In this document: positions 351 through 48,193 of the stretch, one piece after another | Position numbering within the stretch: the stretch's first letter is position 1 | Layout: each line of letters starts with the position of its first letter | From: Shigella phage Sfin-3 | Sequence record: MN296515 | Strand: one strand, 5' to 3' | DNA length: 50,309 nucleotides | Notes under the pieces: model-generated | Seen by the model: only the letters and a program-made list of their open reading frames with translations | The model's database searches: none | What the model was told of the DNA's origin: nothing | Position numbers and translations under genes: made by a program

Positions 351-390
351 GGCCTTATTGAAGCACGGCAACCAATCAGAGGAATCAGCT

Positions 391-603
391 ATGGCTACAC
401 GACTCACGCAGTGGCAGATTTACGACAAGGCTTCACGCCTTCGTGAATCACTTCGAGGTCTGACACCGAACGATCGCATGGAAATCATCGGTCATGCATT
501 GCACGAACTAACGTCTCAGGACGTAATCTATCATTCGTGCGGCAATAAGTTATGGAACGTAACATTTGAGGTAAAGAAAGATGAGCAAGATTCACAAACT
601 TAA
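391..603 (+). CDS. hypothetical protein (70 aa)
   Basis: ATG 391 preceded by AACCAATCAGAGGA RBS and promoter module 308-350; track ORF 349 begins with GTG inside the promoter hairpin. Confidence 0.55.
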   Translation: MATRLTQWQIYDKASRLRESLRGLTPNDRMEIIGHALHELTSQDVIYHSCGNKLWNVTFEVKKDEQDSQT

Positions 604-868
604 GATCAATCCTGTACATTTCATTGGTGTAATGAACGGAACCAAAACGGCAGAGTTCCGCATTAATGACCGCAACTTCCAGCTTGGCGATATCCTGGAG
701 CTATGCGAGTTCGATCGTGACGAGTTTACCGGGTGGGAAGTTCACGCCAGGGTGTCCGATGTTACAGACGTGACGCCATACATCAATCGCGGGTATGACG
801 ATCAGGAATGCGACTTCACGCAATACGTGATGTTATCAATCAAACCTTACAGGAAGGTTAGACCATGA
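581..868 (+). CDS. ASCH/DUF3850-like protein
   Basis: 95 aa; N-terminal KLKINPVHF...G.KT.EFR.NDR.FQ.GD pattern resembles ASCH/PUA-like DUF3850 domains; RBS gaggtaaag. Confidence 0.55.
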   Translation: MSKIHKLKINPVHFIGVMNGTKTAEFRINDRNFQLGDILELCEFDRDEFTGWEVHARVSDVTDVTPYINRGYDDQECDFTQYVMLSIKPYRKVRP

Positions 869-1503
869 AATTTGAATGCGTATCAAGTGACGGAACGGGA
901 TTTAAGTGGGGAAAAATCTACGAAGGCGCTCGCGTCAATAACGACAGCTTCGTTGTCGTGGATGAGCACGGTAGCAATGTGAACATCATCCGTCGTCACG
1001 AATACCAAGAAATTTTCCTGCCGTATGGCGGTAGTTCAAAATATATCTTCCATCGAATCGTGGATGGTGTTAAATTTAACGACGTAATCGAAGCAATCAA
1101 CCAACTGCATAATAAAGAGGTAAAATTTATGAAATTTGAATGTATCAGTGATAACACCAAAAAATTTACTGTTGGCAAAATCTACGACGTTCCTACTGAG
1201 CACGCAAAGCACACTGTAGCGCTTACTGACGACACGGGCCGTCACCGCATTGCTACCGTAACGCATAATGGCGAAGGTCTGCGATGGAATAGCGGCAGCA
1301 CTAAGTTTGCAACGTTCGGCAAGAAGCGTAAGCGCACTTTCTGCGTTAAAGGCAAGGTTGCAGCAAACAAGATCCACAACGTCAAGCCGTCGGAAGTTGA
1401 CAGCAAGCCAGCACTTAAGTTTGAAGATAAGGCAGATTTGTCTGGTCTGGCTATCGCTCTTGTTCTCCTGGTTGCTTCGATTTCTCTGATGTTCATCATG
1501 TAA
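865..1503 (+). CDS. tail-anchored membrane protein with internal tandem repeat
   Basis: 212 aa; two ~65 aa repeats each starting MKFEC(V/I)S...GKIY; C-terminal hydrophobic helix LAIALVLLVASISLMFIM. Confidence 0.6.
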   Translation: MKFECVSSDGTGFKWGKIYEGARVNNDSFVVVDEHGSNVNIIRRHEYQEIFLPYGGSSKYIFHRIVDGVKFNDVIEAINQLHNKEVKFMKFECISDNTKKFTVGKIYDVPTEHAKHTVALTDDTGRHRIATVTHNGEGLRWNSGSTKFATFGKKRKRTFCVKGKVAANKIHNVKPSEVDSKPALKFEDKADLSGLAIALVLLVASISLMFIM

Positions 1504-1510
1504 TTTTAAC

Positions 1511-1544
1511 GGGGAATCGGCTCTGAACGGTTCCCCTTTATTTT
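1511..1544 (+). terminator. rho-independent terminator candidate
   Basis: Stem GGGGAA/TTCCCC (1511-1516 / 1531-1536) with 14-nt loop, then TTTATTTT. Confidence 0.4.
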
Positions 1545-1556
1545 GGAGAAAACACT

Positions 1557-1667
1557 ATGCCAGACTTTTCTAACTGGAATAACGAGCCGCCATCATTTCA
1601 GGAGTTGCTATTCTGCCTCTTGGTCCTGACATTATCTCTTAAGGGTGTTTTATGGCTACTATCATGA
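1557..1667 (+). CDS. hypothetical small hydrophobic peptide (36 aa)
   Basis: ATG 1557 with GGAGA RBS directly after hairpin 1511-1544; hydrophobic LLFCLLVLTLSL; overlaps next ORF. Confidence 0.3.
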   Translation: MPDFSNWNNEPPSFQELLFCLLVLTLSLKGVLWLLS

Positions 1668-1870
1668 CAGCAGAAGATGCAGCACGCGACGCAGTGGAAG
1701 GAATGCGCCCAAATACCTCCAGAATAGCACACTACTACAAATCTGAGGTGTCGGCAGTGCAATTGGTCAACGAAATTTTAAGGCTGCCACAAGTCGATTC
1801 AGCGCGCGTGGTGACGTGCTTAAAAAATTATTTTTGCATCACTATTAAAACGAATAGCACGAATTGCTAA
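1652..1870 (+). CDS. hypothetical protein (72 aa)
   Basis: Track ORF; weak AGGG RBS; TAA stop lies inside promoter-module palindrome 1855-1869. Confidence 0.35.
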   Translation: MATIMTAEDAARDAVEGMRPNTSRIAHYYKSEVSAVQLVNEILRLPQVDSARVVTCLKNYFCITIKTNSTNC

Positions 1871-1897
1871 AACCTATCAAGGGGAATGCGCTATGAT
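1855..1897 (+). promoter_or_regulatory. composite promoter module (TAGCA-cgaat-TGCTA, 22 nt, -10 TATGAT)
   Basis: Palindrome 1855-1869; -10 1892-1897 in hairpin 1881-1902; ATG 1928. Confidence 0.55.
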
Positions 1898-1927
1898 TCC
1901 CCTACACCAACAAACGAGGAAACGATA

Positions 1928-2374
1928 ATGAAACACTTAATCTGCATTGAAGCGCCTAACTATGAATACACTCTGCACGGCATTGGAATGTTCAAAGGCC
2001 ACTACATGACAGCAAGCATTTATGATGCGCATCGAGGCGATGGCGATCTAATGATTACTTCAAAAGAAGTTAATCCGTACATCATGCAGAATCTCGGGAA
2101 CAATGAGTATATGGCTTACGGATGCAACGCGGTGTACAAGCATATCAAGATCCGCAAGCGCGTAGTTCGCGCATTCAAGAAGATTGCAATTAAATACTGG
2201 AAGATGAGCAAGAAGGACGCCGGAACATGGGCGCGTAACGTTGCTGATTCATACTTCTATCGTAACGGTGAGTCGTGCTACTTTTTGATCGATGATATTC
2301 ATGACAATTACGGCGGCTCATTCAGTCAGGAAGAGTTTGATAGCTGGGCTGAATACGAGATCAGTTGCTGGTAA
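1928..2374 (+). CDS. hypothetical protein (148 aa)
   Basis: ATG 1928 with GAGGA RBS downstream of module 1855-1897; track ORF 1886 starts inside promoter hairpin. Confidence 0.6.
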   Translation: MKHLICIEAPNYEYTLHGIGMFKGHYMTASIYDAHRGDGDLMITSKEVNPYIMQNLGNNEYMAYGCNAVYKHIKIRKRVVRAFKKIAIKYWKMSKKDAGTWARNVADSYFYRNGESCYFLIDDIHDNYGGSFSQEEFDSWAEYEISCW

Positions 2375-2417
2375 TAGCACTAATTGCTAAAACTTGCTCA
2401 AGGGCATTTGATAGAAT
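2375..2417 (+). promoter_or_regulatory. composite promoter module (TAGCA-ctaat-TGCTA, 22 nt, -10 TAGAAT)
   Basis: Palindrome 2375-2389; -10 2412-2417 in hairpin 2401-2422; ATG 2458. Confidence 0.55.
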
Positions 2418-2457
2418 GCCCTTCGTTGAGTTAAGCAACCAATCATAGGAATAAATC

Positions 2458-2991
2458 ATGGATAAAATTACCATTTGGGGTCAAACTATCAACCTGTTTC
2501 TCGGCACGCGATGCGTGGCAATCTTTGACTTTGACGGAACGCTTAGTGATGGATCAAAGCGCCTTCACCTGTTGCCGACAAAGGATTTGCACTTAACTGA
2601 AAGCTGGTCTGAGTTTAACCGAGCGGCAATATTTGATAACCCAATCCAGAGCACGATTGAGGTTATGAACTCTATGTTTGCTGCCGGGTATCACGTAATA
2701 GTTTTAACCGGGCGAAGTGATGAGGTTCGTTACGCATCTGAGTTATGGCTTAAGCATCACGGTGCGAGATATGATTACTTAGTCATGCGACCGCACACAG
2801 ACAACAGGAAAGACACGGTGATGAAAGAAGAAGCGGTTCGAGCGATCGGTATTGAAAACATCCTGGCAGCTTGGGATGACTCACCGCAAATTATTCCATT
2901 ATTCCGGTCGCTTGGAATAACAACATATGCGGTAGTTGACTATGGCGATAACATTCACGATCATTTAAAATCGCACGGGGTAGAGAAATGA
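2458..2991 (+). CDS. HAD-family phosphatase, T4 Pnk 3'-phosphatase-domain-like
   Basis: 177 aa; IFDFDGTLSD (DxDGT motif), VIVLTGRSD, RKDTVMKEE align by eye to the C-terminal phosphatase domain of T4 polynucleotide kinase. Confidence 0.7.
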   Translation: MDKITIWGQTINLFLGTRCVAIFDFDGTLSDGSKRLHLLPTKDLHLTESWSEFNRAAIFDNPIQSTIEVMNSMFAAGYHVIVLTGRSDEVRYASELWLKHHGARYDYLVMRPHTDNRKDTVMKEEAVRAIGIENILAAWDDSPQIIPLFRSLGITTYAVVDYGDNIHDHLKSHGVEK

Positions 2992-3098
2992 ACCTATACG
3001 AATTTATTGCAGCACATCCGGTATTGACGGTTATCATCCTGCTAATCATCAATCACACCATCATCAATATGGCAAAATTATTTTTAGGGAGATACTAA
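2988..3098 (+). CDS. hypothetical small membrane peptide (36 aa)
   Basis: ATG overlaps upstream TGA (ATGA); hydrophobic core VLTVIILLIINHTII; not in ORF track. Confidence 0.3.
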   Translation: MNLYEFIAAHPVLTVIILLIINHTIINMAKLFLGRY

Positions 3099-3099
3099 T

Positions 3100-3672
3100 A
3101 TGAAAACAGCTATCATTTTAAACGGCGCTCCTGGAGCAGGCAAGGACACTATCGGATGCATCCTGGCTGACACTTACGATCATGTAGCTTTGCGCAGCTT
3201 CAAAGCACCAATGTTTGAGATTGCTCGGGCAATACTGGGTGAGGCTAACTACGAGTATTTCATGTTCTTGTATGAGGATCGTCGTTACAAAGAAGAGCCA
3301 GCGTCAATCCTGAACGGTAAAAGCCCTCGCCAGTTTATGATCTGGATTAGCGAGGAAGTCATCAAGCCACAGTTCGGAAATCGATTCTTCGGTATGCGAG
3401 CGGAAAGCAAGGTCAAAGAGTCATATTCTCTGTCAGTATTTACTGATGGTGGATTCAAAGATGAGGTATTGCAGATGATTGAAGGTGATATCCAGGTCAA
3501 GCTATGCCGAATCCACCGCAAAGGCTGCAACTTTGACAACGACAGTCGTGATTATATTTACCTGGAAGATATGATCGGGGTTAATGGTTATCAGGAGTGT
3601 GATTTTTTCTCTGTCGAAGGTCATCCAGAAATTACCGCTCAGCACATAGCCGCTACGTTCATCAACAAATAG
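3100..3672 (+). CDS. P-loop nucleotide kinase, dNMP kinase (T4 gp1)-like
   Basis: 190 aa; Walker A GAPGAGKDT and ILNGKSPRQ resemble T4 deoxynucleoside monophosphate kinase; TAG stop is first triplet of palindrome 3670-3684. Confidence 0.65.
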   Translation: MKTAIILNGAPGAGKDTIGCILADTYDHVALRSFKAPMFEIARAILGEANYEYFMFLYEDRRYKEEPASILNGKSPRQFMIWISEEVIKPQFGNRFFGMRAESKVKESYSLSVFTDGGFKDEVLQMIEGDIQVKLCRIHRKGCNFDNDSRDYIYLEDMIGVNGYQECDFFSVEGHPEITAQHIAATFINK

Positions 3673-3712
3673 CACGAATTGCTAAAACGTCGGTGGGGTG
3701 ATTTGATATAGT
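3670..3712 (+). promoter_or_regulatory. composite promoter module (TAGCA-cgaat-TGCTA, 22 nt, -10 TATAGT)
   Basis: Palindrome 3670-3684; -10 3707-3712; ATG 3745. Confidence 0.55.
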
Positions 3713-3744
3713 TACCTCATCGACAACGAAGAGAGAAAATCGAA

Positions 3745-3954
3745 ATGATGGTATCAACTGATAAGTTTTTCACTTGCACTAAAACTTCTGAAGTATTCGA
3801 ACTCGTTCATACTGATAACGGTGATTTCATGCATGACGGTTGCGACGTTTTCATTGAAGTGAAAGAAAGCGACTATGATGACGGAGTTTATTACAACCCG
3901 GCAGTGAACACTCAGTTTTTTACACCGATCGAAGATGAAGGAGAAGAGGCATGA
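3745..3954 (+). CDS. hypothetical protein (69 aa, acidic C-terminus)
   Basis: Track ORF; GAGAGA RBS; downstream of module 3670-3712. Confidence 0.55.
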   Translation: MMVSTDKFFTCTKTSEVFELVHTDNGDFMHDGCDVFIEVKESDYDDGVYYNPAVNTQFFTPIEDEGEEA

Positions 3955-4295
3955 TTACGATTAACCTATCAGAGAAGCAAGCTCGTGAAATCCTTGATGC
4001 GATCGGCGACCAATTGCACGTAAAAGGAGCAACTGCCGAGTTGCTCAACCAGATCGAAAAGCAACTTACTCCTGTTTCAACGAATCAAGCTGAGTTTGCA
4101 GCCTGGAAGAGCGAGCGCATCCTGCCAAATATCATCAAGGCATGGAAGCGCAAGCATAAAAAAGAAATCAATGTTGATGACTTATTTTCTGATGAATTAA
4201 GTCCTTCAAAGGTTGCTCAATATCAGTTGCGATACATGGAATCAGTTTGCAATCAGATCTTAAATGTCAACTTTTCATTCGGGAGTGGTAAATAA
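3951..4295 (+). CDS. hypothetical protein (114 aa)
   Basis: Track ORF; start overlaps upstream stop (ATGA). Confidence 0.55.
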   Translation: MITINLSEKQAREILDAIGDQLHVKGATAELLNQIEKQLTPVSTNQAEFAAWKSERILPNIIKAWKRKHKKEINVDDLFSDELSPSKVAQYQLRYMESVCNQILNVNFSFGSGK

Positions 4296-4728: not shown

Positions 4729-4754
4729 CCTGAATCTCTGAGCGGTGATAGTAT
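4725..4754 (+). promoter_or_regulatory. sigma70-like promoter candidate (TTGACC-18-TAGTAT)
   Basis: -35 4725-4730, -10 4749-4754; precedes 140-nt structured leader of gene 4893. Confidence 0.3.
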
Positions 4755-5220: not shown

Positions 5221-5221
5221 C

Positions 5222-11358: not shown

Positions 11359-11373
11359 TTAGCGTTTAATATG

Positions 11374-11405
11374 GGGACTATCCTTTTTTGGATAGTCCTT
11401 TTTTT
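11374..11405 (+). terminator. rho-independent terminator
   Basis: 9-bp stem GGACTATCC/GGATAGTCC with TTTTTT loop, then T8. Confidence 0.75.
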
Positions 11406-11419
11406 ATGGAGAAATCATT

Positions 11420-12187: not shown

Positions 12188-12208
12188 CACAAAAACACTT
12201 TGACGCTT

Positions 12209-12223
12209 TAACAAAAAGTGCTA
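12209..12223 (-). promoter_or_regulatory. orphan palindrome copy, antisense to late operon
   Basis: Minus-strand reading TAGCA-ctttt-TGTTA; no - strand gene downstream; adjacent to terminator 12232-12257. Confidence 0.35.
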
Positions 12224-12231
12224 TTATTGAA

Positions 12232-12257
12232 GCCGTGAACATAATCACGGCTTTTTT
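12232..12257 (+). terminator. rho-independent terminator
   Basis: 7-bp stem GCCGTGA/TCACGGC, loop acataa, then T6. Confidence 0.7.
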
Positions 12258-12278
12258 ATTAACTACGGAGAAGTAATC

Positions 12279-13238: not shown

Positions 13239-13245
13239 TATTATA

Positions 13246-13273
13246 GGGGCTAACTTAGTTAGTCCCTTTTTTT
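13246..13273 (+). terminator. rho-independent terminator
   Basis: ~10-bp stem GGGGCTAACT/AGTTAGTCCC (one G-U) then T7; after major capsid gene. Confidence 0.7.
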
Positions 13274-13288
13274 ATTGGAGAAATCAAA

Positions 13289-13576: not shown

Positions 13577-13582
13577 TCATCA

Positions 13583-13607
13583 AGGCGCTCATGTAGCGCC
13601 TTTTTTT
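13583..13607 (+). terminator. rho-independent terminator
   Basis: Stem GGCGCT/AGCGCC, loop catgt, then T7. Confidence 0.7.
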
Positions 13608-13620
13608 GTGGAGTTTGGTT

Positions 13621-15897: not shown

Positions 15898-15909
15898 ATC
15901 ATATCCACA

Positions 15910-15934
15910 GGGGGCTTGCGCCCCCTTATTCATT
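15910..15934 (+). terminator. rho-independent terminator candidate
   Basis: GGGGGC-ttgc-GCCCCC followed by TTATTCATTT (interrupted T-tract); after tail tube gene. Confidence 0.5.
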
Positions 15935-15973
15935 TCTGTAAAATCATCGTATCAAGTTTGCACTATTCTCTTT

Positions 15974-15988
15974 TAACAAAAAGTGCCA
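15974..15988 (-). promoter_or_regulatory. orphan palindrome copy, antisense to late operon
   Basis: Minus-strand reading TGGCA-ctttt-TGTTA between tail tube and chaperone genes; 22 nt then TACGAT on minus strand. Confidence 0.35.
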
Positions 15989-16010
15989 TTAACCAATCAG
16001 GAGAAATATC

Positions 16011-16328
16011 ATGGCTAAATTTAATTTCGTTCTTGGTCAACTTCCAGACTTCAAACTTCCAGTCACCTTCACCATGCCTAACGGTGAAGATGCAACGATC
16101 ATTTTCACTGTACGCCACCTTTCCAGTAAAGAAGTTCAGGATATGTATGCCAACCAGGGAGAAATGAACGACAGCGAGTTCATTACCAAGATCGCGTCAG
16201 GATGGAACCTTGAAGAAGAATTTAACGAAGAAAATGCGCGAAAACTGGTTCAGTATTATCCTTCAGCAGCGTACAACCTGACAGCAACTTACATCAAGGC
16301 TCTCGCCGGACACCGCGCAAAAAACTAA
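16011..16328 (+). CDS. tail assembly chaperone (lambda gpG-like)
   Basis: 105 aa immediately upstream of tape measure; ends at slippery heptamer A-AAA-AAC. Confidence 0.7.
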   Translation: MAKFNFVLGQLPDFKLPVTFTMPNGEDATIIFTVRHLSSKEVQDMYANQGEMNDSEFITKIASGWNLEEEFNEENARKLVQYYPSAAYNLTATYIKALAGHRAKN

Positions 16329-25598: not shown

Positions 25599-25604
25599 TA
25601 TCAA

Positions 25605-25630
25605 GGGCATCGAGAGATGCCCTTTTCTTT
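25605..25630 (+). terminator. rho-independent terminator
   Basis: 7-bp stem GGGCATC/GATGCCC, loop gaga, then TTTTCTTTT. Confidence 0.65.
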
Positions 25631-25643
25631 TGGAGGATTTATT

Positions 25644-28477: not shown

Positions 28478-28551
28478 ACGGCACAAATAGCTAAACAAAT
28501 AATTAATGAGGTGTTATAATGCACCTCATACACCAATCAGGAGAAGTTAAG

Positions 28552-29199
28552 ATGCAATTATCACCGGAAACAAACGAAATCCTCCCAGCACTGTTTAATG
28601 CTCGCAATAAATTCGCGAAGGCAAAGAAGGACGCTAAAAACAATCACCTGAAGAACTCATACGCAACTCTTGATGCGATGATGGCGGCAGTTAGCCCAGC
28701 GTTAACCGATAACGATATCATGATCCTGCAATCAATGCTGGATACCAGTACAGAAACGACTTTCCATCTTGAAACTATGCTGATTCACAAATCAGGGCAG
28801 TGGGCCAAATTCTTCATGATGATGCCGATTGCAAAACGCGATCCTCAAGGTGTAGGTTCCGCAATGACTTATGCTCGACGCTACTCTCTCGCTGCGGCGC
28901 TTGGTATTAGTCAGAGTGACGACGATGCGCAGCTTGCAGTGAAATCCGTCAAGGACTGGAAAAAAGAACTTGATGCGTGCGAAGATATCGAATCACTGAA
29001 GGATGTATGGGCCAGCGCCTACCGTCAGACTGACACGGCAAGCAAGTCAATCATTCAGGATCACTACAACGCACTTAAGGCTAAGTTTGAGATCGGTAAA
29101 GCTCGTGGTATTCGCCCGGCGCAACCGGAACAGAAAAAACAGGTTGAAGCAACTAGCGCGAAGCCTGTACAATCTCAATCAATCACCAACTTTGAATAA
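28552..29199 (+). CDS. single-strand annealing protein (Erf/Rad52-like)
   Basis: ATG 28552 with ACCAATCAGGAG RBS; position between exonuclease and SSB; call is by context. Confidence 0.5.
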   Translation: MQLSPETNEILPALFNARNKFAKAKKDAKNNHLKNSYATLDAMMAAVSPALTDNDIMILQSMLDTSTETTFHLETMLIHKSGQWAKFFMMMPIAKRDPQGVGSAMTYARRYSLAAALGISQSDDDAQLAVKSVKDWKKELDACEDIESLKDVWASAYRQTDTASKSIIQDHYNALKAKFEIGKARGIRPAQPEQKKQVEATSAKPVQSQSITNFE

Positions 29200-32568: not shown

Positions 32569-33021
32569 TTAACTAAAAATGCTATTGGTCGTTCCGATAT
32601 CTTCCTTCTTGACAACTCGCATAAACTTCTTGTTTTTGCAGCGCTTCTCAAGGCACTTGCCGTTCCCATCAAACTTCAGATCGAATCGCAGCCATGCGGC
32701 CCGAAATCCTTTGCAACCCTGTCGGCGATAAGCACGATGCGCCGCTTCAGCGCCTTGCCAGGAAATCATATTTCGATCCTTCCACCCTTGAACCGTCTGG
32801 TTGCTAACTTTCAGAGCCTTTGCGCAAGCCGCCGGACCACCATAATATTCAATAAGAGCATCCAATCGCGCTCTCAGTCCTGCGCGCGTTTCTTCTTTAT
32901 GGATATAAAATCCGCAGCGCTGGCGAGGCTTTTTATCTTTACCGCGTCGTGTTCCGTTGTTACCATTGATGTGACGTTTATCGATTTCACCAGTAGACTC
33001 TGCGATACGCTTCATATTCAT
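32569..33021 (-). CDS. Cro/YdaS-like HTH DNA-binding protein
   Basis: ATG 33021 with GGAGA RBS (track start 33093 would overlap the promoter); central ...ACAKALKVSNQTVQGW...RFDL resembles YdaS/Cro-type HTH; basic N-terminus. Confidence 0.5.
   Translation of the reverse strand: MNMKRIAESTGEIDKRHINGNNGTRRGKDKKPRQRCGFYIHKEETRAGLRARLDALIEYYGGPAACAKALKVSNQTVQGWKDRNMISWQGAEAAHRAYRRQGCKGFRAAWLRFDLKFDGNGKCLEKRCKNKKFMRVVKKEDIGTTNSIFS
32570..32584 (-). promoter_or_regulatory. degenerate palindrome copy (TAGCA-ttttt-AGTTA) at 3' end of Cro-like gene
   Basis: Encodes the C-terminal NSIFS* of the Cro-like protein; followed on minus strand by terminator 32522-32559. Confidence 0.3.
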
Positions 33022-33034
33022 ATTAATTCTCCTG

Positions 33035-33077
33035 TAGCACTTTTTGCTAAAAACGTTTACTGTATGCCGTGTATTAT
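33035..33077 (+). promoter_or_regulatory. composite promoter module for helicase operon (TAGCA-ctttt-TGCTA, 22 nt, -10 TATTAT)
   Basis: Palindrome 33035-33049; -10 33072-33077; GTG 33116; palindrome is also in the 5' leader of the divergent Cro-like gene. Confidence 0.55.
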
Positions 33078-33101
33078 ATCGTAAACGATACAACGATTCA
33101 A
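33073..33101 (-). promoter_or_regulatory. sigma70-like promoter for Cro-like gene (TTGAAT-17-TATAAT)
   Basis: Minus-strand -35 33096-33101, -10 33073-33078; its -10 overlaps the + strand -10 (33072-33077) of the helicase promoter. Confidence 0.55.
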
Positions 33102-33115
33102 AGGATTAAATAGCC

Positions 33116-35134
33116 GTGACAATTAACATCAAAAAGCAAATCGCATTACTTGGCGATGACTATATAAAACGCACTCAAGAACGATTCACTGTTGGTGAGG
33201 TCGTTCCGTATCCGTACCAGGTTGTTGCTTATGCTGAGATCGCAAAACGCCTATCAAATTATGAGCATCCATTCTTTGTTAAAGCGTCAGTATCGGCGGG
33301 TAAGACCATCATTTTTGCTATGGTTGCAAAGCAGTGTCAAAAAATGGGCTTGAAAATGCTTGTGCTGGCACGCCAGGGTGAGATTGTCGATCAGGATAGT
33401 GAAGAGATCGACAATTTCGGGGTGACTAACTCTATATTCTCAGCGTCACTTGGAATCAAGTCTTGCTACTTCCCGATCGTGGTAGGCTCTGAGGGTACTG
33501 TTGCAAATGGTTTAAATAATGAGCTAGCTGATTTTGTCCCTCACGTAATCGGGATAGATGAATGTCACCAGGTGGATTGGGAAGACCTTGCACAAGCCAT
33601 AGATGGCAAGGAAACGATGGAACAGATGCGGGAAGAGAAGGGAAAAATCATTATGAATGGGGAGGTTCCTCTGATTGGTAATGATGGGAAGCCTCTACTT
33701 GGAACTAAGCGAAGCCAATACACGATCGTAATCATGGAAATGATGCGCCGCTGCAAAGAAACTCACGGTCACGACCTCAGAATATTTGGTATGACTGGAT
33801 CTGAATTTCGTGGCGTAGTTCCTATTCTTGTTGAGAATCCAAAGGCGTTAGGCTTCTGGCGTGAGCGCGTTACTGATATAGACACCAACTACCTTATTGA
33901 GTTTGGCTCAGTTGTTCCTACTATATTCGGCTCGACGGACGGAGTTCACTACGATCTTGATAAATTTAAGGCATCAAGCGAGGATGGGGTACAGGACTTT
34001 ACAGAGAAAGATATGAAGGCAATGGAAGATGAGATCCTTCATGATAAATCTCTTACTCAGCGAATCATGCAAATGGTTGCTAAAAAGGCTGAAGAGCGTA
34101 ACGCAGTCCTGATTACATGCGCCGGGGTGCGTCACTGCAAAGAGGCGGCAGCGGCACTACCGCATGGAAGCACATATGCAATTATTACTGGCGACACAGA
34201 CACTAAAACGCGCAAGAAGATTCTTGATGATGTGAGGGCAGGGAAAATTAAATACACCTTTCAGGTCATGGCGCTAACTACTGGCGTTAACGTTCCAAAC
34301 TGGGATTTCAGTGTAATACTTCGCAAGATAGGATCTCTCACCTTGCTGATTCAGCTTTTGGGTAGGGGTATGCGACTTCTTAAATCATGGCAGGTTGCTG
34401 AAGGGATGGTTAAGCAAGACCATCTTGTATGGGATTTCGCAGGCACGATGGATGAGTTGGGGCAGCTTTATTTCGATCCTATACTTGAGCAGGCTCAGTT
34501 CCAGAAGCGATTTGAGAACGGAAAAGACCCGAAAAAGTGTCCGAAATGTGGTTGCGTAAATAGCTTCTACGCTCGCCGATGCGTTAACGTTATCGACGGT
34601 GAACGCTGTGATCATTTCTGGACTTCTCAGATTTGCGAGGACCAGGTTGATGAACGTACCGGGAAAATTCTTGTTAAAGGGTGCGGTGCCGAGAATGACG
34701 TTGTTGCCCGAGTCTGTCGCTGTTGCGATGTTTCTCTTGTTGATCCTAACCTTAAGTTATCCGGTAAGGCGTACACTAAGAATGACTGGTACGAGGTCAA
34801 GAATTTTGAAGTTACGTTAACCAAAAACCAAAAGGGTGTGATATACAAATACACACTTATTAACGACGATGGTGATGAGTTCAAGGCGTATGAAAAATTC
34901 TTCCCTGAGTCAGACTCTAAGATTTGCGGTACGCTATGGAAAACGAAAGGAGTATTGCCTCACGTATCAGATCCTAAAATGCGTCGCTACTTTATCGGAA
35001 TGAAGAACGCTATCAAGATCGTGCAATACGCTCATCATATAGCGCATCCGGTACGCGTTACTCATAGACGCAACCAGAAGAAAGAAGATATTATTTTACG
35101 CAAAGATTTTGGTATGGAGGATATCCCGGAATGA
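33116..35134 (+). CDS. SF2 DNA helicase (DExH box) with C-terminal zinc fingers
   Basis: 672 aa; Q-motif PYPYQ, Walker A SAGKT, DECH box; C-terminal CPKCGC...C...C clusters; GTG start after module 33035-33077. Confidence 0.8.
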   Translation: MTINIKKQIALLGDDYIKRTQERFTVGEVVPYPYQVVAYAEIAKRLSNYEHPFFVKASVSAGKTIIFAMVAKQCQKMGLKMLVLARQGEIVDQDSEEIDNFGVTNSIFSASLGIKSCYFPIVVGSEGTVANGLNNELADFVPHVIGIDECHQVDWEDLAQAIDGKETMEQMREEKGKIIMNGEVPLIGNDGKPLLGTKRSQYTIVIMEMMRRCKETHGHDLRIFGMTGSEFRGVVPILVENPKALGFWRERVTDIDTNYLIEFGSVVPTIFGSTDGVHYDLDKFKASSEDGVQDFTEKDMKAMEDEILHDKSLTQRIMQMVAKKAEERNAVLITCAGVRHCKEAAAALPHGSTYAIITGDTDTKTRKKILDDVRAGKIKYTFQVMALTTGVNVPNWDFSVILRKIGSLTLLIQLLGRGMRLLKSWQVAEGMVKQDHLVWDFAGTMDELGQLYFDPILEQAQFQKRFENGKDPKKCPKCGCVNSFYARRCVNVIDGERCDHFWTSQICEDQVDERTGKILVKGCGAENDVVARVCRCCDVSLVDPNLKLSGKAYTKNDWYEVKNFEVTLTKNQKGVIYKYTLINDDGDEFKAYEKFFPESDSKICGTLWKTKGVLPHVSDPKMRRYFIGMKNAIKIVQYAHHIAHPVRVTHRRNQKKEDIILRKDFGMEDIPE

Positions 35135-36576: not shown

Positions 36577-36610
36577 TTGCTAAAACTACCCGGCGAAAGT
36601 CGGGTATAGT
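36568..36610 (+). promoter_or_regulatory. composite promoter module (AAGCA-ctaat-TGCTA, 22 nt, -10 TATAGT)
   Basis: Palindrome 36568-36582; hairpin 36588-36605; -10 36605-36610; ATG 36643. Confidence 0.55.
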
Positions 36611-36642
36611 TATTTCATCAAAACGAAATGAGGAATAAGAAG

Positions 36643-40255: not shown

Positions 40256-40292
40256 GATGTTTTCCTTCAGGTCGTTTCATTTCGATGAAACA

Positions 40293-40335
40293 AATATACC
40301 CGATACGAGATCGGGTGTTTTAACAAAAAGTGCTA
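40293..40335 (-). promoter_or_regulatory. composite promoter module, minus strand (TAGCA-ctttt-TGTTA, 22 nt, -10 TATATT)
   Basis: Palindrome 40321-40335; hairpin 40298-40316; -10 40293-40298; ATG 40255. Confidence 0.5.
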
Positions 40336-42501: not shown

Positions 42502-42918
42502 TTATAAGTATTTGGCCTCAAAGGTTGTGCCGTCTGCGATACTAAAACCAACCTCTTCGCGAAACAAGGTCCATCGACAACCATCTTCATCAAAGATGTA
42601 ACCAGCTACGCCACCGAGAGCGCGACCGCTTTCAACCTGGTAACGCTTGCCAACTTTGAATGATTTTTTCATTGGGTTGCGATGGTCAAGCCCGGTGCAC
42701 TTGAGCGTCTTTGTTTTCAACTCAGTGAACTTCGCGAAGAAGATTTCATCAGATCCGTGAATCTGTAATTCATCATGCTTTTCAAGTTTTAAATACTTGC
42801 CGCATTTTAACTTGATTTCACGAGTGCCATCATAGCGCTCACGACCCTTGTATAGGTTGTTTACTTCAAATCCTGTGATTTTATCTGTGTAAGTGCATTT
42901 CAGTTTGATGGATTTCAT
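42502..42918 (-). CDS. hypothetical protein (138 aa)
   Basis: Track ORF; AACCAATCAGGAG RBS; module 42955-42997 upstream. Confidence 0.55.
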   Translation of the reverse strand: MKSIKLKCTYTDKITGFEVNNLYKGRERYDGTREIKLKCGKYLKLEKHDELQIHGSDEIFFAKFTELKTKTLKCTGLDHRNPMKKSFKVGKRYQVESGRALGGVAGYIFDEDGCRWTLFREEVGFSIADGTTFEAKYL

Positions 42919-42954
42919 TTCGTTAACTCCTGATTGGTTATCTTGAATAAGGTC

Positions 42955-42997
42955 ACTTTATCAAATGACCTTACGGCAATATTAACAAATCGTGCTA
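42955..42997 (-). promoter_or_regulatory. composite promoter module, minus strand (TAGCA-cgatt-TGTTA, 22 nt, -10 TAAAGT)
   Basis: Palindrome 42983-42997; -10 42955-42960 inside hairpin 42950-42972; ATG 42918. Confidence 0.5.
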
Positions 42998-42998
42998 T

Positions 42999-43208
42999 TT
43001 ACCAGGGAATATAATCGTCGTCGTCTTCATTAATATCATCACTAGGTAATTCAAAGTTAGGATCGTATTCGCTTTCAGCATCCATATCCATATCGCCAAG
43101 AGCCTCATCAAGTGTTATTTCTTTATATGCAACCTTGATGCACCATTCGGCACTAAGTCCAGCATCAAGCGCTGCAAAATAACGGGTCCAAAAATTATCC
43201 TGCTCCAT
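42999..43208 (-). CDS. small acidic protein with SSB-C-terminus-like tail
   Basis: 69 aa; C-terminus ...INEDDDDYIPW resembles the SSB tip DDDIPF; GGAG RBS. Confidence 0.55.
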   Translation of the reverse strand: MEQDNFWTRYFAALDAGLSAEWCIKVAYKEITLDEALGDMDMDAESEYDPNFELPSDDINEDDDDYIPW

Positions 43209-43211: not shown

Positions 43212-43436
43212 TTAACTCCATGAATTAATATAAATTGAGCTTGCTTCAAGCGTAGCACGAACATCGGCATCTGTTGCATTTACTAAGCGCGAGCCTGGCG
43301 TGCTGCCGATAACGTTATTACCGTTACGAGTCTTAGTTACCGTCATTGAAATAAAGCCGGAAGACTTATCCATTTTGATAACTACACGGCCTTTCGCGTT
43401 CAGGTGCTTGATGATATTCTCAACTTTAATGCTCAT
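43212..43436 (-). CDS. hypothetical protein (74 aa)
   Basis: Track ORF; module 43469-43512 upstream. Confidence 0.55.
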   Translation of the reverse strand: MSIKVENIIKHLNAKGRVVIKMDKSSGFISMTVTKTRNGNNVIGSTPGSRLVNATDADVRATLEASSIYINSWS

Positions 43437-43468
43437 TTTTAATTCCTTTGTTTGTTTGATGTGGGAGT

Positions 43469-43973: not shown

Positions 43974-43990
43974 TACTCCCCCTTAACCAT

Positions 43991-44191: not shown

Positions 44192-44555
44192 ACAATGCCC
44201 CCTTAACACGATCCGCAATGCAGGAGTTTACAGTGATTGAGTAGTTAGCCACGCCCCATAATGCAATATTGCCAAGCTCGGTACGCATTGATGGATTGTT
44301 AAGCTGGATTATTGTCTCTCCAGTATCATTATCAATAAAGCGAGACACGCCTAAATGGTCCACCACGCGGGTTACTCGGTTCACGCACTCCATTGCATCA
44401 CTTACACCGTAATAAGCGCTTAGAGCGGCTCTCACTGCCTTCTCTTGCTTGTTGTAAATCTTGCGAGCAATGTTCTCGATCGCTACGTTCTCTTTCTCGT
44501 CAGTCTGGATTGCTGTGCTTGCTGAGAAGTCAAGGTCTACGAATTGTTTAAACAT
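44184..44555 (-). CDS. hypothetical protein (123 aa)
   Basis: ATG 44555 with AGAGGG RBS (track start 44579 is TTG overlapping upstream gene). Confidence 0.5.
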   Translation of the reverse strand: MFKQFVDLDFSASTAIQTDEKENVAIENIARKIYNKQEKAVRAALSAYYGVSDAMECVNRVTRVVDHLGVSRFIDNDTGETIIQLNNPSMRTELGNIALWGVANYSITVNSCIADRVKGALYE

Positions 44556-44559
44556 GTAA

Positions 44560-44790
44560 TCACCCTCTAAAACTATCAATTGTATCGTTGATGTATTTCA
44601 CTTGCGCCTCTACGTCAGACGTGGCTATATACTGGAATGTATCGTAATCTTCCCAAAGGTCGACAAGCTCAACCTTTGTATGATGCTCTTTTAATCCACC
44701 CATGTGACCGTAATGTGTGCGGTAGACGATGAATCCCTCATCATTGGCGCGCTGGATTGCTTTCTTCAATCCGGGGTGTTTAATTGCCAT
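44560..44790 (-). CDS. hypothetical protein (76 aa)
   Basis: ATG 44790 with AACCAATCAGGAG RBS; track GTG start 44823 overlaps the -10 at 44822-44827. Confidence 0.55.
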   Translation of the reverse strand: MAIKHPGLKKAIQRANDEGFIVYRTHYGHMGGLKEHHTKVELVDLWEDYDTFQYIATSDVEAQVKYINDTIDSFRG

Positions 44791-44821
44791 CTTATCAATC
44801 TCCTGATTGGTTGGTGTGTTC

Positions 44822-44864
44822 ACTATACCCCGATTCCCTTCGAGGCGTTTAGCAAAAAGTGCTA
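44822..44864 (-). promoter_or_regulatory. composite promoter module, minus strand (TAGCA-ctttt-TGCTA, 22 nt, -10 TATAGT)
   Basis: Palindrome 44850-44864; -10 44822-44827; ATG 44790. Confidence 0.55.
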
Positions 44865-44865
44865 T

Positions 44866-45051
44866 TTAGAATTTTACATCTTCAACAAGCTCAACCATTT
44901 TGTAACCCAAGCGATAAGAGTCGCCGAACAACAACAGACCCATAAATTCATCGTTGGTTATTGACTCCTTGCCAACAGTTTTAAGCTCTCCGTTGTGAAT
45001 CACGGTATCGCCTATCTTGATCTCTGATTTATGAACTAATTTTGTTTTCAT
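44866..45051 (-). CDS. hypothetical protein (61 aa)
   Basis: Track ORF. Confidence 0.5.
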   Translation of the reverse strand: MKTKLVHKSEIKIGDTVIHNGELKTVGKESITNDEFMGLLLFGDSYRLGYKMVELVEDVKF

Positions 45052-45066
45052 TTTCTGACCCGTTAA

Positions 45067-45252
45067 TTAGAAGAAAGATACGTAGTTTGCAATACCTTTA
45101 GCGTCGTCGTTAGGCATTGCTTTGATAGCCAGGTCATAACCAGCCTCGACCTTCTGCTTTGCTGACTCTTCGTTGTATCCCCAAATAACCAGGATCTTAA
45201 CTACGTTTTCTTTGCTCAGGACTTTAAGGTCTTTAGTGATGCGAAGTGCCAT
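45067..45252 (-). CDS. hypothetical protein (61 aa)
   Basis: Track ORF; GAGGAAAAAC RBS; module 45287-45329 upstream. Confidence 0.5.
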   Translation of the reverse strand: MALRITKDLKVLSKENVVKILVIWGYNEESAKQKVEAGYDLAIKAMPNDDAKGIANYVSFF

Positions 45253-45286
45253 TTTTGTTTTTCCTCAATCTCGTTTCGATGAGGTA

Positions 45287-45329
45287 ATTATGCCAAATCA
45301 CACCGATCGAGTTTTAACAAAAAGTGCTA
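45287..45329 (-). promoter_or_regulatory. composite promoter module, minus strand (TAGCA-ctttt-TGTTA, 22 nt, -10 CATAAT)
   Basis: Palindrome 45315-45329; -10 45287-45292; ATG 45252. Confidence 0.5.
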
Positions 45330-46018
45330 TCCGCGATAGCTTTAAAAAATCCCCTGGGCGACAGGGATCGTATCAACTTAGTTTTGGCAGATTTGCCGCC
45401 CAGCTTGTTTTGCTGTGCAGAGTACCCGTCAGGCAGGTTTACAGGTTTTCTCTCGGGCATGACAAAATCGCCAGAGGTCCAAAGACAAGTTTTCTTCGGA
45501 TAAGCATCGCGCGGCGCAATATACATCGGGAACCAGGGATGTGAGTCATTCTCAGGAAGATAGCCGCCATACTCCCAGGGATTGAAGGAGTGATTTGGTT
45601 TTCTCCACGCAGACGACAGGACGCTCACCGGATTCTCAATGATGTAAGTCACGCCCAGGCTATCTCCAATGTTCGCAGCAATCCGGGCGGTGGCGACAGC
45701 TTTCTCCTGGAACAACGGATCACGTTCACGCTTGCTGGCAAAGTGGCGAGCACCACTAACAGCCAGGTCAGTGCACGGCGGGAAGGCTATAATGAAATCC
45801 GGCTTGCCATACACGCCAGCTATAGCATCACGCTCAAACGCTGCGTCAATGAACACGTTCACATACTCAATGTTCGGATGCTCCACTCGGGCATTGTACT
45901 TTGCATAATCCCCGTGATCGGCTCCGTCAAAGTTGAAGCACATCACCTTGTGACCTTGCTTAGCCAGTTCATGACCTGCAAGGCCGGAACCGTCGAATAG
46001 CGACCAAATCAACTTCAT
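45314..46018 (-). CDS. small DNA (cytosine-5)-methyltransferase-like protein
   Basis: 234 aa; motif I SLFDGSG, motif IV FPPC (catalytic Cys), motif VI ENP in canonical order; shorter than typical C5-MTases. Confidence 0.55.
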   Translation of the reverse strand: MKLIWSLFDGSGLAGHELAKQGHKVMCFNFDGADHGDYAKYNARVEHPNIEYVNVFIDAAFERDAIAGVYGKPDFIIAFPPCTDLAVSGARHFASKRERDPLFQEKAVATARIAANIGDSLGVTYIIENPVSVLSSAWRKPNHSFNPWEYGGYLPENDSHPWFPMYIAPRDAYPKKTCLWTSGDFVMPERKPVNLPDGYSAQQNKLGGKSAKTKLIRSLSPRGFFKAIADSTFC

Positions 46019-46158
46019 TTTGCGATCTCCTTTTTGTAGTGATTCAGCTTGTCGATGATTGACTTCGACTTGTTGGCTAGCGCCATGTCAGAGAACAGAG
46101 CCACGCGATAGATGTGTTCGTAACGATTAATGGCCGCGTTGATGTTTGCAATATTCAT
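46015..46158 (-). CDS. hypothetical small protein (47 aa)
   Basis: ATG 46158 with CAACCAATCAGAGGA RBS; track GTG start 46197 would overlap the -10; stop overlaps next ATG. Confidence 0.45.
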   Translation of the reverse strand: MNIANINAAINRYEHIYRVALFSDMALANKSKSIIDKLNHYKKEIAK

Positions 46159-46188
46159 GTCGATTCCTCTGATTGGTTGATGTGATGA

Positions 46189-46233
46189 ATCATACACTGC
46201 CAGCCTGACCAGGTCGTTAGCAAAAAATGCTAT
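46189..46233 (-). promoter_or_regulatory. composite promoter module, minus strand (perfect TAGCA-ttttt-TGCTA, 24 nt, -10 TATGAT)
   Basis: Palindrome 46219-46233; -10 46189-46194; ATG 46158. Confidence 0.5.
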
Positions 46234-46433
46234 TCCAATAGTTGCTCATTATTCCACCAGTAATGGAATATCTGGAATAATTGCGATCCCGATTGATCTC
46301 GAATGATGAAATGTGATTGTTGCATGATGTGCAACTGTTGATGTGATTGTTGCTTGGAATGCAATGATTGTGAGAGGGAGGATTTAGTGTTACCCGGTTC
46401 GCCTGGTAGTCATCTCCATTTTTAGCAAAACGT

Positions 46434-46448
46434 GCTATCGATTACACT
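46434..46448 (-). promoter_or_regulatory. palindrome copy (TAGCA-cgttt-TGCTA) without evident -10
   Basis: Minus-strand orientation in intergenic region B; no TATAAT-like hexamer at 22-24 nt. Confidence 0.35.
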
Positions 46449-46754
46449 TTAACTTGTCACGACTGTAATATTTGTCTAGAATCGCACTTGTGACAAAATT
46501 ACGCACTGTGACGCATAACAATAGACATGTAGATATATGTATATATATAATATATATAGTGTTTTTTTATTTATATATATAGATAATCATATTGTAATGG
46601 TTGTGTATAGCCGTCTTACATTGTCTAGCGTACTGTTGGCATATTTCTATCTGCATGTTTATATATACAGTACTTTTTTGAGAGCCATATATTTCTATAT
46701 GGACCCTAGACAGCTAGACAAATGTTACACAGCTTAAAATTGGCTCGCAGGCAT

Positions 46755-46783
46755 TGACAGCCCTACATTGCGCCGTCACAATG
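46755..46783 (+). promoter_or_regulatory. weak sigma70-like promoter candidate (TTGACA-17-CACAAT)
   Basis: -35 46755-46760 perfect, -10 46778-46783 poor; in AT-rich region B upstream of gene 46842. Confidence 0.3.
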
Positions 46784-46841
46784 GCAATTGTTGACATGTT
46801 ATGACAACATTTACACATCAATAGACAAATAAGGATGAATT

Positions 46842-47357
46842 ATGAGCAATACCAATCAGGAATTAAAAATCACCGATATGATTCGACTAACCTGCGATGC
46901 AATGTACCGCGACAAAGGCATGACCGAGTTCTCTTTCGTGGCTGATGATATGGCCATCGAGGCCGCGCGATTCTACTTCCGTGGCCAGGAGGTAAGCGAT
47001 GCCGATCTTGAATCTGCCGCTGCCGGATGGGTGGACCAGAACCAGGGGGAGGTAGAGAAGAGATTCAAGTCCGCTTTCATTACTCCGATCATTACCCGGC
47101 ACTTTTGCAAGTACGGCAAGGTGGCAAAGGTGAAGGTAGGCCGGAATGACGCGGCAATCACAATGATAACCGTTATCGTTACAGACGAAGAGGTTCCAGT
47201 GAAGAAACGCCGTAGCCGGAAAAAAGTTAGCCTGGCCGACTGCCTGGATTCGTTTGATGTTGATGTTAGCAAGCTATCCGATAGCGAGTTAATGGTTCGT
47301 GATGTGAATGAGATCGTGCGCCAGATGAAAGCGCATATTGAAAAGTGTGGACTGTAA
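46842..47357 (+). CDS. hypothetical protein (171 aa)
   Basis: Track ORF; first gene after AT-rich region B; AAGGATGAA RBS. Confidence 0.6.
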   Translation: MSNTNQELKITDMIRLTCDAMYRDKGMTEFSFVADDMAIEAARFYFRGQEVSDADLESAAAGWVDQNQGEVEKRFKSAFITPIITRHFCKYGKVAKVKVGRNDAAITMITVIVTDEEVPVKKRRSRKKVSLADCLDSFDVDVSKLSDSELMVRDVNEIVRQMKAHIEKCGL

Positions 47358-47372
47358 CGCTGATAGGTGAAA

Positions 47373-47415
47373 TAGCACTTTTTGTTAAAGCTCGGTCGAG
47401 CGGATCGGGTATTAT
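47373..47415 (+). promoter_or_regulatory. composite promoter module (TAGCA-ctttt-TGTTA, 22 nt, -10 TATTAT)
   Basis: Palindrome 47373-47387; -10 47410-47415; ATG 47448. Confidence 0.55.
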
Positions 47416-47447
47416 CTTTTCATCGACACGATACAGAGGAAACGAAG

Positions 47448-47642
47448 ATGGAAACGCAAATTGACGTAGTGGTTGTTCAGCGGGACTCAACTCATGAAAA
47501 GGGTCTTTTCAAGAAAGGAACCGAAATCACGATCGACCTTGAGGATATGGTTGCGTATCACTCGGGCCTTACCTGGAACGTGGTGCGCGTAGGGAGCGAC
47601 TACAAACTCAAAGGCTTTAACACTTACTTTGCGGAGGCTTAA
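47448..47642 (+). CDS. hypothetical protein (64 aa)
   Basis: ATG 47448 with CAGAGGAAACGAAG RBS after module 47373-47415. Confidence 0.5.
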   Translation: METQIDVVVVQRDSTHEKGLFKKGTEITIDLEDMVAYHSGLTWNVVRVGSDYKLKGFNTYFAEA

Positions 47643-47644
47643 TC

Positions 47645-48115
47645 ATGGCGACAATTACCGTATTTCTTGCTAAAGATGAACTTGACGATGAAATGTCATT
47701 CTTCGCATTCGAGCACAAAACCGGATCGCACTGGCACACTTACAGCCATTACACGGTTATCTCAATCGAAGCGTACGACGGCGAACTGCTCACTGATAAA
47801 CTGAGTAATTTCATTGAAGCCGTTAAAGCTAGCGGCGGCTGCGAGTGGAAGGAAGATCACGAAGTTATGCGAATGCTTGAGATGGTCAATCCGGTTCGAC
47901 TTGAGTCTTTCGAGCTTGATTCTGACGTGAGCATTAAGGTGAGAAAGCCGGGTGAGTTGTTGCCGGGGATGCGTGTGCTGACTGGTTACTCAGGTCGTAA
48001 AGTGTGGCGAACCATATCGAAGATTCGCCAGCGTTCGGCAACATGCTATAGCGTATTCTTTGATGACGGCTGGAATGAGGTTGCTGGTAGTAACGTGAAG
48101 TATCTTACCAAATAG
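47645..48115 (+). CDS. hypothetical protein (156 aa)
   Basis: Track ORF; TAG stop is first triplet of palindrome 48113-48127. Confidence 0.55.
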   Translation: MATITVFLAKDELDDEMSFFAFEHKTGSHWHTYSHYTVISIEAYDGELLTDKLSNFIEAVKASGGCEWKEDHEVMRMLEMVNPVRLESFELDSDVSIKVRKPGELLPGMRVLTGYSGRKVWRTISKIRQRSATCYSVFFDDGWNEVAGSNVKYLTK

Positions 48116-48155
48116 CACGAATTGTTAAAACAGGATCGGGGTATCTTGCTATAGT
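48113..48155 (+). promoter_or_regulatory. composite promoter module (TAGCA-cgaat-TGTTA, 22 nt, -10 TATAGT)
   Basis: Palindrome 48113-48127; -10 48150-48155 inside hairpin 48138-48161; ATG 48194. Confidence 0.55.
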
Positions 48156-48193
48156 TACCCCATCAAAACGAGATACCAATCAGAGGATTCACC

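Follow-up and report, generated by a model that had tools for sequence, protein, structure and literature searches.

CCAATCA beside the ribosome-binding site of leading cistrons in Shigella phage Sfin-3: a candidate sequence-specific element of translation initiation in T1-like phages

Overview

The 50,309-nucleotide sequence of Shigella phage Sfin-3 (record MN296515; hereafter, the window) carries the seven-base motif CCAATCA directly 5' of the Shine-Dalgarno (SD) sequence of eight genes. The motif keeps a set position, strand and spacing, is enriched, and is under selective constraint. We tentatively read the unit (A)ACCAATCA, with less than even confidence, as a cis element that lies in the translation initiation region of the mRNA and would be recognized by its sequence during 30S binding. 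The window is a complete or near-complete genome of a T1-like siphophage (Drexlerviridae, genus Tunavirus). Its first 12 kb share 97% identity with Shigella phage phi2457T, 96.5% with the Sfin phages and ~91% with ADB-2 and JMPW1; its right end matches the same group, and its gene order is that of Sfin-1 and T1.

T1-like phages are abundant, are used in phage therapy and in research on defense systems, and are notorious laboratory contaminants. A short, selectively kept mark on the first cistron of many of their transcription units would offer a seven-base handle on post-transcriptional control. Read by the ribosome, the motif would add to the portable translation elements available for enterobacteria; read by a phage factor, it would reveal a new post-transcriptional regulator.

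The motif adjoins the SD of leading cistrons

The window contains 22 copies of CCAATCA; dinucleotide shuffles average 8.06 ± 2.5, and none of 100 reached 22. The 12-mer CCAATCAGAGGA, at up to two mismatches, occurs 16 times (3.7 expected). A preliminary description of this sequence had named eight start regions that share the motif and had proposed a search near all starts. All eight sites exist, with coordinates at most 0–3 nt off (Table 1), and the motif lies between -27 and -6 of 8 of the 81 gene starts, where 0.18–0.28 would be expected (Poisson P = 8e-10).

The geometry of the eight sites is uniform. Its orientation is always sense with respect to the gene downstream, an SD core (GGAG, GAGGA or, once, TAGGA) follows CCAATCA immediately on its 3' side, and the end of the motif is 11–13 nt from the ATG. 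Two As usually precede CCAATCA, and the unit can be written (A)ACCAATCA + G(A)GGA; natural variants of the motif include CCACTCA and CTAATCA. At the polynucleotide kinase site, phage T1 has GAGGA where the window has TAGGA.

Of the 42 genes whose upstream gap is 60 nt or longer, 8 have the motif; of the 39 with a shorter gap, none does (P = 0.0056). This upheld the earlier claim of a recurrent, strand-specific element beside the ribosome-binding site (RBS) of first genes. It was likewise found at 6/16 genes behind a copy of an intergenic ATAGCAC repeat (described below) versus 2/65 others (P = 5e-4). Seven of the eight sites lie downstream of this repeat, six of them behind canonical copies and one (28533) behind a degenerate copy, and at six sites the motif is ~45–55 nt downstream of the repeat copy. 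The motif is nevertheless distinct from the repeat: most leaders driven by the repeat lack it, and some that have no canonical repeat carry it; family-wide, ACCAATCA(G) stands before the SD in 17–20 of 128 unique cassette leaders. The genes that bear it are apparently early genes, together with one late tail gene.

The Sfin-1 orthologue of the gene at 391-603 is an internal cistron that has the same AGGAATCAGCTATG (SD plus spacer) and no CCAATCA, while the Sfin-1 cassette that has the motif, with the same SD and spacer, precedes a gene other than this orthologue. Because the internal orthologue keeps the SD and spacer but not CCAATCA, the motif is, on this comparison, tied to the leading position and not to a particular gene.

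Conservation across Drexlerviridae and selective constraint

For an unbiased count, we listed the 7-mers ending 0–2 nt before SD cores in each genome. ACCAATC(A) was the top pre-SD 7-mer in the window, Sfin-1, T1, TLS and Webervirus KLPN4; it was missing in one Veterinaerplatzvirus genome and rare in Rtp. The motif marks 5–8 cistrons per genome, with several copies in Tunavirus, Webervirus and Tempevirinae and 0–2 in Braunvirinae. Its enrichment in related genomes is the opposite of the outcome that the preliminary description had named as telling against a functional motif. Scanning IMG/VR for AACCAATCAGGAG-N4-10-ATG outside T1-like contigs returned a repeated coding match (…PPTNQEVA…), which looks LexA/CI-like as judged from its translation, and scattered single matches consistent with chance.

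We then compared 80 IMG/VR loci for the tail assembly chaperone (TAC) and 80 for Erf. The TAC leader is AACCAATCAGGAG in Tunavirus, Webervirus and a third lineage, among which the TAC proteins are ~47–50% identical. The 5' flanks are unrelated and not alignable, consisting of an antisense repeat in Tunavirus versus a terminator and a TGTGCATAAT promoter in Webervirus. TLS-like phages have AACCACTCAGGAG, with the one-mismatch variant CCACTCA; Rtp-like phages have a decayed CAATAAGAGGA; and in several Tempevirinae-like lineages the leader is without the motif and the antisense repeat touches the SD. At erf, four lineages have the motif in the leader, each behind a different upstream context; in one of them the motif copy comes immediately after a hairpin. 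Within lineages, 2 of 35 motif columns were variable versus 24 of 100 in the 20-nt 5' flank (Fisher P = 0.023), a comparison that is conservative because this flank includes the -10 element. Family-wide there are 23 motif contexts whose flanks are unrelated on either side. Judged by these alignments, the motif is under selective constraint, and its neutral persistence is very unlikely because of the retention across lineages at TAC and erf, the low variation within lineages and the 23 contexts with unrelated flanks.

These data bear directly on the idea that the motif is a functionless leader relic, spread by duplication or recombination of promoter-leader cassettes and kept by linkage to the SD, which we regard as quite improbable. 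The motif does travel with repeated promoter-leader cassettes, as the elements of T4-like phages discussed below do. The gene behind one cassette, the same as far as GAGGAATCAGCTATG, is not the same in the window (372) as in Sfin-1 (11864). AGGAATCAGCTATG recurs ahead of the internal copy in Sfin-1, a sign of deletion or exchange inside these short repeats. T1 and the window also share a promoter (46233 (-)) downstream of which the 3' part of the leader and the gene differ. The 23 contexts, however, are unrelated beyond the 12–13 nt unit, and spread by homologous exchange is unlikely because the shared tracts are then too short. Retention is exact across subfamilies at orthologues whose leaders are saturated with changes, where a neutral 7/7 match would have a chance of ~6e-5 per lineage, and the motif varies less than its flanks within lineages.

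Spacing and orientation point to the RNA

The distance from the motif to the -10 element ranges from 7 to ~35 nt, while its distance to the SD and ATG is fixed. A spacing that holds to the SD and ATG but not to the -10, together with the sense orientation and the predicted single-stranded state (see below), argues for an element of the RNA that is read by sequence. An alternative, to which we give little credence, is that the motif acts on DNA or transcription as a promoter-escape or initial-transcribed signal, a promoter-proximal pause or the site of a DNA-binding protein. It would fit one class of leader, in which the motif starts 11–13 nt past the -10, at ~+5/+6 of the transcript, and the position of seven of the eight sites downstream of cassette-type promoters. 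It is hard to square with the variable -10 distance and with the Tunavirus TAC copy, which has no recognizable promoter (site 15993 shows no clear promoter of its own in the window phage). The erf copy that directly follows a hairpin in one lineage also tells against it, and the motif has neither dyad symmetry nor likeness to a -10 element.

Pairing, structure and accessibility

Pairing with the 3' tail of 16S rRNA (…GAUCACCUCCUUA-3') was calculated with RNAduplex. The motif with GGAG gave -7.4 kcal/mol, GGAG alone -6.4 and a scrambled 5' part -6.6; the motif with GAGGA gave -6.0 against -5.7 for GAGGA alone, and the consensus SD gave -21.2 kcal/mol. An extended SD was thus rejected, as the motif adds at most 1 kcal/mol and only its last A pairs. 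The preliminary description had likewise held that anti-SD pairing leaves the upstream CCAATCA unexplained. The wider idea that the motif extends rRNA pairing, as a longer SD or an enhancer of the T7 epsilon type, is the least probable that we considered. What speaks for it is a 7-nt complement at nt 1019-1025 of E. coli rrsH 16S rRNA (ACCAAUC : GAUUGGU, -10.2 kcal/mol), as good as only 2 of 100 shuffled motifs achieve anywhere in 16S. A 7-mer match is not unusual given 1542 possible positions, though, and we take this helix to vary between rrn operons and to lie on the subunit head, away from the mRNA exit; the match is probably chance.

The preliminary description had also suggested that the motif forms the 3' strand of a leader hairpin. 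This did not hold. When 5' leaders were folded from the predicted start, ~7 nt after the -10, the unpaired probability of the motif was 0.68–0.95 at seven sites and 0.30 at one, and leader energies were no lower than those of shuffles. Across the whole window, Rfam returned no match at the gathering threshold and there are no tRNA genes. A structure-avoiding spacer was rejected as well: against random 7-mers the mean accessibility percentile of the motif was 0.54 (P = 0.58, 22 contexts), and the "unstructured spacer" version fails because there is no gain in accessibility. Accessibility of the SD and AUG against composition-matched shuffles had a mean percentile of 0.60 (P = 0.20, 22 contexts). 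Compensation for a weak SD was dismissed, SD strength being equal with and without the motif.

Pairing with a conserved phage RNA, a further suggestion, fared no better. The only long anti-motif in the window, a perfect reverse complement of CCAATCAGAGGA at 33667-33678 (+), is helicase coding sequence that encodes PLIG; it has a synonymous difference in T1, other subfamilies lack it and its conservation ends with Tunavirus, and it was judged to be chance. An A/U-rich enhancer bound by ribosomal protein S1 does not fit either, since CCAAUCA has three Cs, three As and one U and is unstructured but not U-rich. The consensuses for CsrA, Hfq (ARN repeats), RNase E, IHF, sigma54 and lambda boxA, compared by eye, do not match the motif.

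Which factor might read the motif

From this evidence we infer that the motif acts on RNA rather than DNA, that its effect is on translation and that its reader may be the ribosome itself. In this preferred reading the element, at ~-19 to -13 from the AUG and directly 5' of a short SD (GGAG or GAGGA), would mark cistrons that come first after a promoter or terminator in Drexlerviridae. It would be recognized by sequence, not structure, as the 30S subunit binds, with ribosomal protein S1 or the 30S platform side as the simplest reader, and would set the translation efficiency of the 5'-proximal cistron. Direct recognition by the 30S subunit, as an enhancer or a standby contact, was ranked slightly first because it needs no extra component and tolerates a mixture of early and late genes.

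Several observations weigh against it. The major capsid and major tail genes, expected to be the highest expressed, lack the motif. Its near-absence in Rtp-like Escherichia coli phages, and its deletion from the TAC leader in several Tempevirinae-like lineages, are unexpected if the host ribosome is the reader. The motif brings no predicted gain in RBS accessibility over random 7-mers, SD strength beside it is no different and gives no sign of compensation, and only a 7-nt complement (nt 1019-1025) was found in 16S rRNA. The effect on translation is, moreover, deduced from sequence.

An alternative ranked close behind, likewise with less than even confidence, is that the motif and SD together form the operator of a trans-acting post-transcriptional regulator, either an RNA-binding repressor of phage or host or a site-specific endoribonuclease. 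Such a factor would play the part of T4 RegA or RegB, and the leading cistrons that carry the motif would make up a small regulon. An operator would account for sequence conservation that pairing, structure and accessibility do not explain, for the marking of just a subset of first cistrons (8 of the 42 long-gap genes), and for a lineage distribution that tends to all-or-none, which would fit the presence or loss of a phage factor. By phyletic profiling, the window genes 3100-3672 and 43212-43436 share this distribution, and 42999-43208 does so less cleanly; of these three, 3100-3672 encodes a dNMP kinase and the other two encode small proteins of unassigned function, and the co-distribution stems from a single phylogenetic contrast. 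Against an operator, Pfam searches with 47 window proteins and PHROGs searches with six gave no RegA, RegB, other RNase or RNA-binding repressor family, although most of the small window proteins match no Pfam family. The sole RNA-binding-like protein (581-868, DUF3850/ASCH-like) was discarded as a reader, being missing from T1, which has the motif. The like marking of early genes and a late tail gene is also awkward for temporal shut-off.

A further variant, which we consider rather unlikely, is that CCAATCA may be a family-specific "address label", either for an undiscovered RNA-binding factor of Drexlerviridae or enterobacteria or for a new sequence-specific 30S contact upstream of the SD. 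In one form a small phage protein may boost, repress or cleave the leading cistrons of 5–8 transcription units. If true, this would amount to a second recognition code beside the SD in a classic model phage.

Relation to known RBS-adjacent elements

Known pre-SD translational enhancers include the T7 gene 10 epsilon sequence, A/U-rich S1-binding tracts and CA-rich sequences. Like these, the motif is short, predicted to be single-stranded, in sense orientation and directly 5' of the SD in phage leaders, and it would act at the binding of the 30S subunit. Unlike them it is C/A-rich, neither U-rich nor epsilon-like, without convincing rRNA complementarity, present at 5–8 cistrons per genome rather than one, and known here from sequence alone. 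T4 RegB needs only GGAG in a suitable context, and RegA sites are AU-rich and include the AUG. The motif resembles both in adjoining the SD of a subset of phage cistrons, which it would mark for shared control after transcription, but differs in that its conserved part lies 5' of the SD, and no homologue was found among the Pfam-scanned window proteins.

The PeSLs of T4-like phages combine sigma70-like boxes at N17 spacing with a stem-loop, and no RBS-adjacent box is described for them (PMC4122927). As with PeSLs, the motif lies within repeated intergenic cassettes of promoter and stem-loop; what sets the T1-like cassette apart is its rigid 22-nt spacer, together with an upstream repeat specific to the family. 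Gene content at T1-like cassettes may also differ between close relatives, and gene exchange located at a cassette is clear in two cases, window 372 versus Sfin-1 11864 and window 46233 (-) versus T1 48751 (-), and these two comparisons suggest recombination at T1-like cassettes. As a separate observation, the 14–15 nt string (G)AGGAATCAGCTATG (window 379-393) occurs in Sfin-1 at the cassette-proximal gene (11864 (-)) and again at the internal gene; in the window the cassette is joined straight to the internal gene, as if the intervening genes had been deleted via short direct repeats.

A literature search found the motif in no phage context, though the T1 and Rtp genome papers were not covered and an earlier mention is possible; nor did it turn up transcriptome or ribosome-profiling data for any T1-like phage. 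The motif would be a family-specific addition to a known class of RBS-adjacent cis elements, not described before as far as we searched.

The surrounding terminator-promoter cassette

The window holds ~17–21 copies of the repeat (A)ATAGCAC-N3-TTG[CT]TAA(A), with the core ATAGCAC-N3-TTGNTAAAA. In the available part of its account, the re-annotation of phage TLS describes a direct repeat, aaATAGCACnnnTTGnTAAAA, with 21 copies in TLS ~76 nt upstream of start codons, notes it also in T1, Rtp and Rogue1, and leaves its function undecided between a stoperator, an enhancer-binding site and an UP element (PMC11447400). The cassette considered here is the same one, and six of the eight motifs lie downstream of it; that part of the account mentions no CCAATCA or RBS-adjacent motif and neither the 22-nt -10 spacing nor the embedded hairpin described next (PMC11447400).

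Cassette statistics were taken from 134 unique repeat copies in ten complete genomes. Past TTGNTA, a strong -10-like hexamer (TATAGT, CATAAT or TATTAT) stands at exactly 22 nt in 83 copies and within 1 nt of that offset in another 13, with almost none at other distances. The -10 is of the TG extended type in half of the copies, and no -35-like hexamer was found at canonical spacing among the 134. Among the 106 copies with a -10 at that offset, 73% have a GC-containing hairpin versus 12.5% of shuffles. The hairpins take two forms, one filling the 22-nt spacer and abutting the -10, the other enclosing the -10; in the spacer-filling form the -10 also serves as a terminator U-tract. There are 16 different 7-bp stems, and copies differ by compensatory changes and G-T wobbles, a pattern suggesting that the structure is under selection, possibly in the RNA of transcripts that read through.

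Because of the fixed 22-nt -10 and the hairpin enrichment, the repeats look like composite terminator-promoter cassettes of which the repeat is the upstream half. Together, the repeat and its -10 resemble a class of promoter specific to the family, whose spacer is longer than sigma70 would accommodate. The repeat also forms an imperfect palindrome (TAGCA-N5-TGCTA), the form that would be expected of a binding site for a dimeric protein. As a lead on T1 transcription organization, this cassette with its rigid spacer and terminator hairpin may be weightier than the motif.

A second leader motif, CATCGAAACGA or CATCGA(A/C)AACGA, is found at the predicted transcription start in 26–29 of the 128 unique cassette leaders. 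It is commoner than CCAATCA, and in these leaders the SD is often directly next to AACGA.

Inside the rightward late-gene block, the repeat also occurs in antisense copies at conserved positions. In many lineages the copy at 15989 sits right against the tail-chaperone RBS. The role could be that of an antisense promoter, of a roadblock or of a binding site.

The stretch 33022-33115 is a divergent control region. In it a near-consensus sigma70 promoter (TTGAAT-17-TATAAT, 33101..33073 (-)) drives a conserved HTH regulator gene (32569-33021 (-), phrog_2856). The predicted transcript of this gene would cross the (+) repeat at 33034-33052, which drives the helicase operon. This layout would suit autoregulation by the HTH protein, if that protein binds the repeat.

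Table 1. The eight CCAATCA sites of the window and the associated cassette features. Minus-strand positions carry (-) where a line covers both strands; sites are named by the 5' base of the motif.
Feature	Strand	Position	ATG	Unit	Gene downstream	Upstream elements
Motif site 372	+	372-378	391	370..383, AACCAATCAGAGGA, motif + SD	391-603, 70 aa, function not assigned	repeat 307-325; -10 TATAGT 345-350; -10 to motif 21 nt
Motif site 2439	+	2439-2445, then TAGGA	2458	2437..2450, AACCAATCATAGGA, motif + weak SD	2458-2991, polynucleotide kinase	repeat 2374-2392; -10 TAGAAT 2412-2417
Motif site 15993	+	15993-15999	16011	15991..16003, AACCAATCAGGAG, motif + SD	16011-16328, tail assembly chaperone (Pfam Phage_TAC_4)	terminator 15909-15926, then adjoining antisense repeat copy 15971-15989 (-)
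Motif site 28533	+	28533-28539	28552	28531..28543, CACCAATCAGGAG, motif + SD	28552-29199, Erf recombinase (Pfam ERF)	degenerate repeat 28480-28495 (GGCACAAATAGCTAAA), 21-nt spacing, TATAAT; TGTTATAAT (-10 at 28515-28520) within hairpin 28507-28513 / 28522-28528
Motif site 48176	+	48176-48182	48194	48174..48187, TACCAATCAGAGGA, motif + SD	48194-48424, 76 aa	repeat 48112-48130; -10 TATAGT 48150-48155; leader also has CATCAAAACGA
Motif site 46176	-	46170-46176	46158	46165..46178, AACCAATCAGAGGA, motif + SD	46015-46158, 47 aa, opens methyltransferase operon	repeat 46215-46233; -10 TATGAT 46189-46194
Motif site 44810	-	44804-44810	44790	44800..44812, AACCAATCAGGAG, motif + SD	44560-44790, 76 aa	repeat 44847-44865; -10 TATAGT 44822-44827; -10 to motif 11 nt
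Motif site 42937	-	42931-42937	42918	42927..42939, AACCAATCAGGAG, motif + SD	42502-42918, 138 aa, phrog_2684, opens helicase operon	repeat 42980-42998; -10 TAAAGT 42955-42960
TTG of repeat copies	+	317, 1864, 2384, 3679, 31503, 33044, 35554, 36577, 38565, 47382, 48122, 49143, 49921
TTG of repeat copies	-	46428, 46223, 45320, 44855, 42988, 40326, 15979, 12214
Example hairpins		333-339/350-356, 2400-2406/2417-2423, 28507-28513/28522-28528, 36597-36616, 40298-40316 (-), 47390-47410
CATCGA(A/C)AACGA, examples		3725-3737, 45266-45276 (-), 40270-40281 (-), 47414-47425, 49187-49198
Antisense repeats	-	window 12206-12224, 15971-15989; T1 15086, 18850; TLS 15042; A123 27980
Terminator followed by SD, examples		11373-11419, 12229-12278, 13245-13288, 13582-13620, 25603-25643

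Other features of the window

The product of 47448-47642 (+), a small early protein, has a match at E = 5e-36 to Pfam PF25180 ("Phage antiviral trigger protein Gp54"). It is a known trigger of a bacterial defense system and has no relation to the motif.

Several late genes start right after an intrinsic terminator whose T-tract runs into the SD (TTTTTAT-GGAG). Because the terminator directly precedes the SD, these genes would depend on terminator read-through. Family-wide, TTTTTAT ranks second among pre-SD 7-mers, and the U-rich pre-SD tracts of the window genome are such terminator tails before late genes, which could double as S1-binding sites.

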